The position numbers and the translations under genes are program-made. The notes under the pieces were generated by a model, which saw only the letters and a list, made by a program, of their open reading frames with translations, did not search any database and was not told the DNA's origin. A stretch of DNA of 26,601 bases, taken from Candidatus Nanohalobium sp. (GTDB lineage Archaea; Nanohalarchaeota; Nanosalinia; Nanosalinales; Nanosalinaceae). The stretch covers positions 1 to 26,601 of the forward strand of contig JBDGTY010000005.1 of assembly GCA_042216335.1 (NCBI GenBank), written 5' to 3'. Below are positions 18,489 through 22,671 of this stretch, one piece after another (within the stretch, counting starts at the first letter, position 1; each line of letters opens with the position of its first letter).

Positions 18489-18593
18489 TGCGGCGTCCGT
18501 GATTTGAACACGGGTTCCTGCCAATCTGCCGCAAAGATCGGTTGACCTTTGGTTGGCAAGGCAGTGTCTTAGACCAAACTGGACCAACGCCGC
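18489..18593 (-). tRNA. tRNA-Gly(GCC) with a 30-nt BHB intron at 37/38 (intron 18524-18553)
   Basis: Acceptor GCGGCGT/ACGCCGC, anticodon stem CTGCC/GGCAG, T-arm CCGTG-TTCAAAT-CACGG; TTGC pairs with intron GCAG, followed by an AT^T bulge. Confidence 0.95.
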
Positions 18594-21659: not shown

Positions 21660-21790
21660 GAGTCTGTAGCTCAGCTGGACAGAGCACTCGGTTCCTAAAT
21701 CCCTGTTCCACTGTGAAGAGGGTTCAAGAAAATCTGTGATTTTCAACTGGAGATACCGAGAGGTCGAGGGTTCAAATCCCTCCAGACTCG
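21660..21790 (+). tRNA. tRNA-Arg(CCT) with a 57-nt intron at 37/38 (intron 21698-21754)
   Basis: Acceptor GAGTCTG/CAGACTC, D-stem GCTC/GAGC, anticodon stem CTCGG/CCGAG, T-arm GAGGG-TTCAAAT-CCCTC; TTCC pairs with intron GGAG. Confidence 0.95.
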
Positions 21791-21797
21791 CAGCCAG

Positions 21798-21804
21798 TTT
21801 AAAT
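21798..21804 (+). promoter_or_regulatory. TATA box of tRNA-Leu
   Basis: TTTAAAT about 30 bp upstream of 21831. Confidence 0.55.
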
Positions 21805-21830
21805 CTTGTTATCAAACAGAGAAGATAGAT

Positions 21831-22100
21831 GCAGGGGTAGCCAAGTGGTCAAACTCCTGAGAGTTTGAAATCACAGAAAACCCTCAGCGGTTTTCGAGTG
21901 GTCAAACTCCTTACGGAGTTTTTCCTCGAACCATCTCTAACGAGAAAGTTCGATGGTCAAAGGCTAGAGGAGGACCAGAGGCGCAGCGTTCAGGAAACGA
22001 CTTTCTCCCCCGAGAGAAGGTCGTTGGAGAAGACGAATGTCTTCGATTTGAGATGCGCTGTCCCCTAGCGGGTTCGCAGGTTCAAATCCTGCCTCCTGCA
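21831..22100 (+). tRNA. tRNA-Leu(CAG) with two introns: 126 nt in the D-loop (about 21/22; 21853-21978) and 60 nt at 37/38 (21995-22054)
   Basis: The spliced product GCAGGGGTAGCCAAGTGGTCAA|AGGCGCAGCGTTCAGG|GCGCTGTCCCCTAGCGGGTTCGCAGGTTCAAATCCTGCCTCCTGCA is a typical 84-nt archaeal Leu tRNA; BHB1 is GGTC/GACC plus CTCCT/AGGAG; BHB2 is TTCA/TGAG. Confidence 0.92.
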
Positions 22101-22168
22101 CTTTCTCTACCGAACACACGCCAGGTCCAGTCCTTATGGCAAATAGATCCATGTCAAGAAATCCGATA

Positions 22169-22175
22169 TTTAAAA
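22169..22175 (+). promoter_or_regulatory. TATA box of tRNA-Arg(TCG)
   Basis: TTTAAAA about 30-35 bp upstream of 22206. Confidence 0.5.
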
Positions 22176-22205
22176 CTGGCCGAACCATTTCCCTCCATAA
22201 GGCGA

Positions 22206-22458
22206 GGGCCCGTAGCTCAGCTTGGACAGAGCATTCGGCTTCGGAGGCATGTTACGCTACGCCAACGCAACAAGCCATGCCTTATATGGCTTCCGGAAAG
22301 CTTGTGGATTCGAGGCGTAGCCGACTCGGTGAAACCAGTTTCACTCGATCGACTGAAATCTATTATTTCATCGAGGAATGGAACCCTAGTGACAGTCAGG
22401 TCGTAGGGCTCCGACCTAAGATACCGAAAGGTCCAGGGTTCAAATCCCTGCGGGCTCG
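22206..22458 (+). tRNA. tRNA-Arg(TCG) with a 178-nt intron at 37/38 (intron 22245-22422)
   Basis: Acceptor GGGCCCG/CGGGCTC, anticodon stem TTCGG/CCGAA, T-arm CAGGG-TTCAAAT-CCCTG; relaxed BHB CTTC/TAAG plus GG/CC. Confidence 0.92.
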
Positions 22459-22512
22459 TTATCAATCCGTTAATTTCTGGGAGAACTGTGGAACTGCTTC
22501 GTCTGGCAGTCC

Positions 22513-22535
22513 GTTTGAATCCCTGCGGGCTCGTT
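22513..22535 (+). repeat. Duplicated tRNA-Arg 3' end (att-like direct repeat)
   Basis: AATCCCTGCGGGCTCGTT is identical at 22443-22460 and 22518-22535; 21 of 23 bases match when extended to the GTT. Confidence 0.85.
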
Positions 22536-22671
22536 TCTGTCGTTGCTGTCTTTTCCCGAAGGAATGTTTTTGTATTTTATAAAGATGGCTGCGTTAGTTT
22601 TTGACGTGTAGATGGGATTGATTGACCGGTTGAGAGATCTGGTTTCCCGGCTTGAAGAAAAGGTGATAATT

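Follow-up and report, generated by a model that had tools for sequence, protein, structure and literature searches.

The canonical introns of archaeal transfer RNA (tRNA) genes, which are marked by a bulge-helix-bulge (BHB) splice motif, interrupt about 15% of the genes and are 11 to 129 nucleotides (nt) long, with a median of 12 to 25 nt except in tRNA-Trp, according to a review (PMC4090602). That review also describes transposed tRNA introns in the Thermoproteales (Fujishima et al. 2010) and, in Euryarchaeota, a tRNA-Trp intron that contains a box C/D guide. In Nanoarchaeum equitans, small RNAs (sRNAs) of the C/D box type have been reported from dicistronic tRNA-sRNA precursors that are cut by RNase Z, with one sRNA located in the tRNA-Met intron, and these sRNAs were called mobile in that paper (PMC3491384). 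For the nanohaloarchaea, published work gives bare counts for two cultivated organisms, 15/39 and 4/38 tRNA genes with an intron (PMC10266531), and mentions tRNAs predicted for Nanohaloarchaea archaeon SG9 along with a markedly increased disruption of tRNA genes in DPANN lineages with an extra-loop enzyme (PMC5829648). Here, we describe 4 tRNA genes with 5 introns on a contig of 26,601 nt, referred to as the window (contig C45), in a genome of Candidatus Nanohalobium sp. (G000; 1.02 Mb in 74 contigs, 96% complete). We consider it on balance probable that these are working tRNA genes with BHB introns, presumably spliced, which derive from mobile modular families; that the genes are working and spliced is the safest part of this conclusion.

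The tRNA genes were searched for with ARAGORN, either with default settings or with introns allowed, and with Rfam. The default run called none of the 4 genes and Rfam identified 2 of them (21660-21790 on the forward strand, 56.9 bits, and 18489-18593 on the reverse strand, 45.3 bits), whereas the run that allowed for introns returned 4 genes, all of them interrupted (Table 1), with the Arg-CCT call reaching to 21791. One of these calls, at 21831-22101, was labelled tRNA-Arg(CCT) with an intron of 186 nt, and was resolved into tRNA-Leu(CAG) with 2 introns by a self-written BHB scan, which looked for a helix of 4 base pairs (bp) between two 3-nt bulges, the first of which is cut behind its second base, with a filter for 4/4 pairs in this central helix. 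After the exons had been joined in silico, ARAGORN called intron-less tRNAs of 74 nt for Arg-CCT, 84 nt for Leu-CAG, and 75 nt for each of the other two. No second gene for any of the 4 anticodons was found in G000. The preliminary description of this DNA had listed the 4 interrupted tRNAs with the same intron lengths, which ARAGORN, the BHB scan and the in silico splicing bear out, and its estimate of about 450 nt of intron agrees with the 451 nt obtained by summing the 5 introns.

Table 1. Coordinates of the tRNA genes, their introns and the intron modules in the window
Feature	Coordinates	Strand	Parts and evidence
tRNA-Arg(CCT)	21660..21790	+	Exons 21660-21697 and 21755-21790; intron 21698-21754, 57 nt, at 37/38; Rfam, ARAGORN, BHB scan
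Arg-CCT intron, Y body	21701..21744	+	Hairpin 1 21701-21722; hairpin 2 21728-21744; minimum-free-energy fold, hairpin-2 scan
tRNA-Leu(CAG)	21831..22100	+	Exons 21831-21852, 21979-21994 and 22055-22100; two introns; BHB scans, spliced call
Leu-CAG D-loop intron	21853..21978	+	126 nt; central helix GGUC/GACC 4/4; outer helix CUCCU/AGGAG, 5 bp
Leu-CAG 37/38 intron	21995..22054	+	60 nt, Y-shaped; central helix 4/4
Leu-CAG 37/38 intron, parts		+	Hairpin 1 21996-22025 (12 bp); GA-flanked hairpin 2 22027-22046; 3' strand of central helix 22049-22052
tRNA-Arg(UCG)	22206..22458	+	Exons 22206-22244 and 22423-22458; intron 22245-22422, 178 nt; ARAGORN, spliced call
Module A, short-stem variant	22246..22270	+	Stem GGCAU/ACGCC, loop GUUACGCU, tail AACGCAA; pattern match 22251-22270; row of alignment A1
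Variable hairpin after module A	22273..22296	+	AGCCAU...AUGGCU + UCCGG; aligned with five other A-B introns
Module B core	22306..22324	+	GGAUUCGA-GGC-gua-GCC-GA, small GA..GA-flanked hairpin; pattern match 22312-22324; conserved block UGGAUUCGAGGCGUAGCCGA
Two-hairpin insert, 55 nt	22325..22379	+	Alignment A3, BLAST
Module B2 hairpin	22380..22422	+	GGAACCCUA-GUGAC...GUCG-UAGGGCUCC, then GACC-UAAG-AU closing the splice motif; kept in 6/6 family members
tRNA-Gly(GCC)	18489..18593	-	Intron 18524-18553, 30 nt, one hairpin; Rfam, ARAGORN, spliced call

The BHB scans identified a central helix of 4/4 pairs for the Arg-CCT intron, next to an anticodon stem of 5 bp, and for both introns of Leu-CAG. Read directly from the sequence, the central helix was 4/4 in Gly-GCC and 3/4 in Arg-UCG, which has one U.C mismatch and failed the filter of the scan. 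At the RNA level, each of the four introns at 37/38 has A as its first base and AGAU at its 3' end, as had been correctly observed before. These ends are mostly explained by the BHB geometry, because the G and A pair with N32 and U33 in the last 2 pairs of the central helix and the final AU opens the 3' bulge; elsewhere in G000, the 3' ends of introns include AGUU, AAAU, GGUG and others. The splice site in the D-loop of Leu-CAG is also used by an intron of 43 nt in Leu-CAA of G000 and by one of 51 nt in Leu-CAG of G014. Inside the D-loop intron of the window, the sequence UGGUCAAA of the exon D-loop is furthermore found twice, at 21899-21906 and 21954-21961.

To judge the folding of the introns, each was compared with 200 dinucleotide-preserving shuffles of its own sequence. 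The D-loop intron (126 nt, z score -3.99), the second Leu intron (60 nt, z -4.17) and the Arg-TCG intron (178 nt, z -2.92) folded more stably than expected, with 0, 0 and 1 of the 200 shuffles, respectively, folding as well, whereas neither the Gly intron (30 nt, z -1.95, 11/200) nor the Arg-CCT intron (57 nt, z -1.18, 29/200) was significant alone.

The diversity of introns in the lineage was examined in a set of 83 introns of at least 25 nt, taken from G000, G003, G004, G017 and 17 further loci. G001 and G003 belong to the same genus as G000, G004 to another genus and G024 to another family; G003, G004 and G017 are closed single-contig genomes, the last of which was read over 760 of its 948 kb (80%). 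The anticodon labels assigned by ARAGORN were used for the counts of matches between tRNAs, a few of these labels being miscalls, and 4 labels were corrected by eye: Arg-CCT or Gln-TTG to Leu-CAG, Cys-ACA to Val-UAC, and Ser-GGA to Ile-GAU. In total, 36 of the 83 introns matched an intron of another anticodon at E<1e-3, as compared with 0 in the shuffled controls.

An example is the 178-nt intron of Arg-UCG, which aligns with introns of 5 other genomes in a family that spans 5 tRNA species, here called the A-B family. The other members are the introns of Arg-UCG in G001 (129 nt), Arg-GCG in G003 (184 nt), Val-UAC in G012 (197 nt; Cys-ACA according to ARAGORN), Thr-CGU in G002 (179 nt) and Thr-UGU in G017 (126 nt). 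Their parts follow one another as module A, a variable hairpin, the core of module B, a two-hairpin insert that is optional, and module B2, and the blocks they have in common are GGUUACGCU, ACGCAA, the variable hairpin, UGGAUUCGAGGCGUAGCCGA, and AAUGGAACC...GUGAC...CUCCGACCUAAGAU (alignment A3). The variable hairpin follows module A in the same layout at 30 loci. Hairpin-sized inserts occur at 2 fixed points of the family, inside module A in G003 and G002, and after the module B core in the window and G012. The 55-nt insert of the window is lacking in the orthologous intron of G001, occupies the same place in the Val-UAC intron of G012 (87.7% identity over 57 nt, E 5e-11), and has matches on both strands in other genomes. 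In the B2 hairpin, 84.7% of the cells were paired, as compared with at most 48.6% when the partners were slid, and 4 of the 12 pairs changed on both sides; with 6 sequences, this support for covariation is modest. A long-range pairing of 22256-22263 in module A with 22314-22321 in the module B core, predicted in the fold of the Arg-UCG intron, is not claimed, as the B loop varies and the A loop is invariant in the family.

Most of the introns share a Y shape, in which hairpin 1 is followed by a second hairpin of the form GA-GAAR...YUUC-GA that ends 9 to 11 nt before the 3' splice site. Hairpins with a GAA...UUC stem of this kind were found in 43 of the 83 introns versus 4.3 in shuffles, exact GA...GA flanks in 18 of the 83 versus 0.02, and the stem ended 9 to 11 nt upstream of the 3' splice site in 20 of the 43. 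The 60-nt Leu intron has the same layout at 10 nt by reading (in the hairpin table it was merged into the miscalled 186-nt entry) and is 76% identical to the Leu-CAG gene of G024, for which ARAGORN reported an intron of 67 nt (L004). The second hairpin of Arg-CCT is GAAAAUC-ugu-GAUUUUC with flanks AA..AA and also ends 10 nt before the splice site. Similar units were identified in D-loop introns as well as in 37/38 introns, including GAAAACC-cucagc-GGUUUUC-GA at 21876-21895 in the D-loop intron of the window. In the 57- and 60-nt introns, hairpin 2 is located 1 to 3 nt upstream of the 4 bases that pair with anticodon-loop positions 32 to 35. The splice motif accordingly takes the form of a three-way junction, with a central helix formed by positions 32 to 35 and the 4 intron bases, hairpin 1 taking the place of the outer helix, and hairpin 2 between them.

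For 13 Y-type introns of Arg-CCU, Arg-UCG and Leu-CAG from 12 genomes, a MAFFT alignment analyzed with RNAalifold recovered hairpin 2, with compensatory changes on both sides in 5 of its 7 pairs. Hairpin 1 was not recovered from these 13 introns by this method because its length is too variable to be aligned; in single folds, hairpin 1 is present in all 13 introns immediately behind the 5' splice site and is followed by hairpin 2. The longer introns consist of the same Y frame to which hairpin modules have been added.

It was also noted that palindromes similar to hairpin 2, GAAGAUC...GAUCUUC, are present outside of the called tRNA genes of G000, at positions judged by eye to be intergenic (C6:8879-8897, C35:32802-32822, C16:48135-48168 and C44:5352-5372), and that some of these palindromes have GUGAUGA and CGAUGAU as flanking sequences on the other strand.

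Introns were found in all 4 of the genomes surveyed with ARAGORN. In G000, 23 of 34 tRNA genes were interrupted, by introns of 26 to 213 nt with a median of 64 nt and a sum of about 2.0 kb; the counts were 21/39 in G003 (30 to 184 nt), 8/39 in G004 (44 to 119 nt) and 12/25 in the 760 kb of G017 (37 to 163 nt). Intron medians in the lineage were 60 to 80 nt and the maximum was 213 nt. The introns are thus unusually long and frequent for Archaea and routine in this lineage. The earlier statement that the window introns are long, at 30 to 178 nt, therefore stands against the published range and median of archaeal introns (PMC4090602), whereas the view of the cluster as special does not survive the length distributions in G000, G003, G004 and G017, an outcome that the preliminary description had itself listed as refuting. 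That every tRNA gene in the window is interrupted is true for all 4 and unremarkable, since at the genome rate of 23/34 the chance of 4 out of 4 is 0.68^4, or about 0.2. The organism is not a haloarchaeon: the AAA ATPase gene that adjoins the tRNA cluster is 73% to 82% identical to genes of Candidatus Nanohaloarchaea, Ca. Nanohalobium, strain M3_22 and SG9, which identifies it as a DPANN nanohaloarchaeon.

The introns also turn over between relatives, in that orthologous tRNAs, even from the same genus, bear unrelated introns or none. The Arg-CCU/Leu-CAG/Arg-UCG gene cluster is kept in several genera, the introns are not, and all 3 genes are intron-less in G015. Across 18 loci, the Arg-UCG intron measured 178, 129, 92, 60, 64, 124, 67, 51, 62 or 59 nt or was missing, depending on the genome. 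Within the genus, Arg-UCG has an intron of the A-B type in G000 and G001 and a Y-type intron of 60 nt in G003, in which the A-B type is instead found in Arg-GCG. For Arg-CCU, the introns of G000 and of G004, from another genus, show 84% identity, yet the gene has no intron in G001, from the same genus as G000. Six tRNA genes that are interrupted in G000 are not so in its congener G003 (Gly-GCC, Leu-GAG, Leu-UAG, Ser-CGA, Ser-UGA and Val-GAC), and the Gly-GCC genes of G004 and G017 also have no intron.

Module A, the first part of the A-B introns, consists of a covarying stem, the invariant loop GUUACGCU and the tail ACGCAA, and was searched for in 70 genomes of the phylum. The pattern GGTTACGCT-N4-12-ACGCAA gave 93 matches in 36 of the 70 genomes, whereas its reversal gave 0. 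When 45 copies were aligned, the stem of 6 bp was paired in 92.6% of the cells and all 6 pairs changed on both sides (62 cells), a result that was reached by 0 of 500 shuffles; the 8-nt loop and the tail were invariant or nearly so. A covariance model built from this alignment, R1, identified 203 copies in 45 of the 70 genomes, with 0 to 25 copies per genome, and 6 of the 25 genomes without a copy are 96% to 99% complete. Five matches to R1 were obtained in G000, the 4 listed being on other contigs, and the module A copy of the window is presumably one of the 5. No Rfam family matched module A, and permissive thresholds (E up to 0.1-10) returned only tRNA in the intron region, the whole window and 6 module A loci.

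Of the 45 copies inspected for their context, 17 are located directly after a 37/38 splice site, 12 (plus 3 by eye) lie 0 to 9 nt past the 3' end of a sense tRNA, none of them in the window, and 3 border on the 5' end of a tRNA encoded by the opposite strand (L056, L062 and L147), while the rest are upstream of tRNA-Ile or have no tRNA in sight. Among the 32 copies next to a tRNA, 29 are in the sense orientation of that tRNA.

Several tRNA loci that carry these modules or related sequences show additional features. Contig C37 ends with the 3' part of tRNA-Glu(UUC), directly followed by module A, a GC hairpin and T6 (C37:11045-11092, L058), an arrangement that looks like a tRNA-trailer small RNA unit with a terminator of its own. 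At L034 in G029 (1334-1620), a complete tRNA-Pro(CGG) is followed by 2 exact copies of its last 20 nt, with module A and hairpin 2 between these extra copies of the 3' end, and by a fourth, degenerate copy further on. The tRNA-Trp intron of G000 (C53:22014-22300, 213 nt) begins with module A and carries AUGAUGA and CGAUGA; this intron and that of the elongator tRNA-Met (C40:3331-3512, 109 nt) both contain GAUGAGG, then hairpin 2, then CCGAUGAUUA. A C-box-like sequence that is related to this stretch, AUGAUGAUCAAACUUUCAGAAG, was observed at C32:4082-4111, where it belongs to the tRNA-Leu(UAA) trailer, and at C50:9165-9186. Between tRNA-Val(GAC) and tRNA-Met (C40:3153-3330), the spacer has stretches of 27 and 18 nt that are identical to parts of the Arg-GCG intron, and represents another case of a module common to an intron and a tRNA flank.

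The window itself contains a partial copy of the 3' end of Arg-UCG at 22513-22535 on the forward strand, 21/23 nt of which are the same as 22438-22460, including an exact repeat of 18 nt at a distance of 75 nt. This copy resembles, in sequence, the attachment-site scar of an integrated element rather than an exon. Downstream copies of tRNA 3' ends were considered as hidden exons and dismissed, since neither in the window nor in L034 does a BHB connect the copies, whatever the offset. A 12-mer common to the trailer in the window and a trailer in G026 was set aside as a chance match. Two open reading frames on the forward strand that overlap the tRNA genes and introns, 22053-22406 (117 amino acids) and 22136-22582 (148 amino acids), were treated as spurious, the second having no Pfam match.

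Enzymes for the processing of such introns are encoded in the genome. G000 has a single EndA gene for a protein of 181 amino acids (PF01974, 92.6 bits; L033 1264-1809 on contig C10), and RtcB is also present (PF01139, 535.6 bits). The EndA protein can be aligned over its full length with the Methanocaldococcus jannaschii enzyme, a homotetramer (1a79), and has an insert of 7 residues (NPYKQGD...) before the catalytic His that aligns with a stretch of the ARMAN-2 enzyme (4fz2) and with a gap in M. jannaschii. According to PMC5829648, the ARMAN-2 enzyme has a specificity loop (ASL/L2) near the catalytic His that gives it a broad substrate specificity, and the extra loop may matter in G000 as well.

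The reading that we favor builds on the gene anatomy, BHB geometry, enzymes, family relations, covariation and patchy distribution described above. The BHB introns would most likely be cut by the single EndA and the exons joined by RtcB. Both modules and whole introns are common to unrelated tRNAs and 3' trailers across the phylum, and are gained, lost and swapped between close relatives. Their behavior is therefore that of modular elements, mobile or selfish, which would persist owing to their clean removal by splicing. That introns move among tRNA genes is suggested by the homologies across tRNAs, the swaps within a genus, and the patchy, multi-copy occurrence of module A. The preliminary description had raised the idea of a hairpin element harboured in tRNA introns, which fits with modules that are common to unrelated tRNAs and inserted or missing between close relatives, and had named covariation as a check, which the stems of module A, hairpin 2 and B2 indeed display. 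Its interpretation as a whole was partly supported: the introns are long, hairpin-built and modular, but they are routine in the lineage, those of the window have no C/D boxes, and the organism is not a haloarchaeon.

Several points weigh against the mobile-intron reading. No mechanism of spread was found: G000 has no Y1 transposase (PF01797, 0 matches) and one TnpB fragment, of 134 amino acids at the start of a contig, and on viral contigs 8 of at least 119 matches to the module A pattern passed the stem filter, none of which was in the context of the module, as if by chance. The outer BHB helix has only 1 to 2 bp in the 37/38 introns unless hairpin 1 is counted, in addition to the mismatch in the central helix of Arg-UCG. 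The ARAGORN labels are wrong for multi-intron genes, and at least 2 of the rows for matches across anticodons (Leu-CAG of G000 versus G014, in both directions) concern the same tRNA. Some of the resemblance between introns could come from the common constraints of the splice motif, though these explain only 4 to 6 nt. We infer splicing in vivo, circles and stable products from the behavior of BHB introns in other archaea, and the mode of spread is likewise inferred. Finally, the invariant loop and tail of module A and its covarying stems throughout the phylum are also to be expected of a functional RNA, and selfishness is therefore not demonstrated by them.

The main rival explanation sees in the modules small RNAs with a function of their own that mature through the processing of tRNAs, and whose 5' ends are made by EndA in introns or by RNase Z in trailers, with the intron copies being released as stable circles and serving in protein binding or as guides, for example through kink-turn (K-turn)-like L7Ae sites formed by the GA..GA hairpins. 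We regard this explanation as rather unlikely, while giving it real weight. It would account for the locking of module A to RNA boundaries, either after the 5' splice site or after the discriminator of a sense tRNA, and for a loop and tail that stay constant while the stem covaries, as the B2 hairpin does too. A precedent exists in another DPANN archaeon, N. equitans, in the form of the dicistronic precursors (PMC3491384). Fibrillarin and Nop5 are encoded in G000, yet a strict C/D box pattern gave 0 sRNAs in the whole genome, and the C-box-like GAUGA of the Trp and Met introns stands beside hairpin 2. The relaxed pattern gave no hits in 21660-22458 or 18489-18593, which argues against functional RNAs of the C/D type in the window. 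Also difficult to reconcile with a conserved function are the 25 genomes in which module A is missing, of which 6 are at least 96% complete, the range of 0 to 25 copies, and the swapping and loss of introns in orthologous tRNAs within a genus. Complements to the module A loop in G000 were found only as the antisense of the module itself and at scattered, chance-like sites, mostly coding by eye, so that no target in trans stood out. A regular 3-nt bulge, as in a standard K-turn, was not evident beside the GA..GA flanks in a look at the sequence level. With the relaxed pattern, one convincing C/D box sRNA candidate was identified elsewhere in the genome (C10:3969-4034, forward strand, UGAUGA-guide-CUGA-hairpin-UGAUGA-guide-CUGA), the rest being mostly noise from coding sequences.

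We hold it to be improbable that the modules are instead miniature transposable elements at the DNA level, with hairpin ends like those of small IS200/IS605 derivatives, which insert at tRNA boundaries and introns and survive only where splicing or end processing removes them. The 3 copies of module A that abut the 5' end of an opposite-strand tRNA would not be expected from insertion at the RNA level, and the hairpin-sized indels at fixed points within the A-B family, as well as the short repeats of tRNA 3' ends that flank module-bearing trailers (L034 and L049), are in line with insertion of DNA; hairpins in single-stranded DNA would also maintain the covariation of the stems. On the other side stand the missing Y1 transposase and the short TnpB remnant in G000, the strong bias of tRNA-abutting copies for the sense orientation, and the surroundings of the modules, in which neither terminal inverted repeats nor regular target-site duplications were seen. 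In addition, 4 tyrosine recombinase genes were identified in G000, 2 of which adjoin tRNA genes, namely C4:19810-20301 beside a 3' fragment of tRNA-Thr(CGU) and C43:22973-23611 beside tRNA-Ala(GGC), and these sites are likely to be integrated elements at tRNA genes.

That the interrupted genes are unspliced pseudogenes or artefacts of the assembly of a metagenome bin is very hard to believe, despite the 74 contigs, many of which end in tRNA genes, and the default searches with ARAGORN and Rfam that miss or miscall genes, given that these genes are the only ones found for their anticodons, that their exons are nearly identical to intron-less orthologs and yield standard tRNAs when spliced in silico, that the same architecture occurs in the 3 closed genomes, and that many interrupted tRNA genes are reported for published genomes (PMC10266531).

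The contigs of G000 that begin or end inside tRNA genes include C46, C47, C53, C62, C63, C66, C74, C37, C4 and C49. Such ends suggest that the assembly breaks at the repeats formed by shared T-arms or modules, and the set of 34 tRNA genes obtained with ARAGORN is therefore incomplete. A scan for T-arms in G000 added at least Leu-CAA, which is interrupted in its D-loop, and Val-UAC, which has a non-canonical insert, both of which had been missed by ARAGORN.

Returning to mobile modular introns as the preferred reading, we tentatively propose, as a possibility that we would not call probable, that module A, with its GUUACGCU loop and ACGCAA tail, and the GA-flanked hairpins represent an undescribed class of tRNA-dependent RNA elements in the Nanohaloarchaeota. 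These would bring neither a promoter nor processing signals with them, would be released from tRNA introns by EndA, probably as circles, and from trailers by RNase Z, and would spread among tRNA genes. If this is true, tRNA genes serve as the platform for both the expression and the propagation of such RNA elements. Our searches of the published literature yielded intron counts and a general comment on tRNA disruption in DPANN, but no account of module A or of the intron families described here; the SG9 tables in the supplement of PMC5829648, outside of our search, may list intron lengths.

How the tRNA genes of Archaea acquire introns is still an open question, and one that has so far rested mainly on the short introns of the Thermoproteales. 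The nanohaloarchaea add a second, unrelated lineage, with tiny genomes, in which intron families differ within a genus, and introns of 50 to 200 nt with separable modules are long enough that each gain, loss or swap can be followed at the level of single bases. Module A is a new RNA motif at tRNA boundaries over much of the phylum that is not in Rfam, and makes a target for small-RNA sequencing in existing co-cultures. As default tools miss or miscall interrupted genes, finding 0/4 with ARAGORN and 2/4 with Rfam in the window, the tRNA complements of such genomes are under-reported.

Compared with known systems, the window introns are similar to the canonical BHB introns of Archaea in their positions, four at 37/38 and one in the D-loop, in having two 3-nt bulges around a 4-bp helix, in restoring the cloverleaf, and in that both EndA and RtcB are encoded. 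They differ in length, with 30 to 178 nt in the window and a maximum of 213 nt in the genome as opposed to 11 to 129 nt and a median of 12 to 25 nt (PMC4090602), in frequency, with 21% to 68% of the genes interrupted rather than about 15% on average (PMC4090602), and in that the outer helix is replaced by the three-way junction with its conserved second hairpin. The tRNA-Trp intron of G000 resembles the Trp intron with a C/D guide in Euryarchaeota in length and, by motif alone, in its AUGAUGA and CGAUGA sequences, unlike the introns of the 4 window genes, which have no such boxes.

The closest precedents are the transposed introns of the Thermoproteales and, in N. equitans, the C/D box sRNAs that are linked to tRNAs and were called mobile. 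With the latter, the elements described here have in common a structured RNA directly 3' of a tRNA or in its intron, one end of which would be created by tRNA processing, whereas module A and the window introns are devoid of C, D, C' and D' boxes. As in the Thermoproteales, highly similar introns are found in tRNAs with different anticodons, at canonical as well as non-canonical positions, and their presence varies between close relatives. Unlike in the Thermoproteales, these introns belong to a DPANN lineage with a single-unit alpha-type enzyme rather than an (alpha-beta)2 enzyme, are several times longer, and consist of separable hairpin modules that are also found in tRNA trailers.

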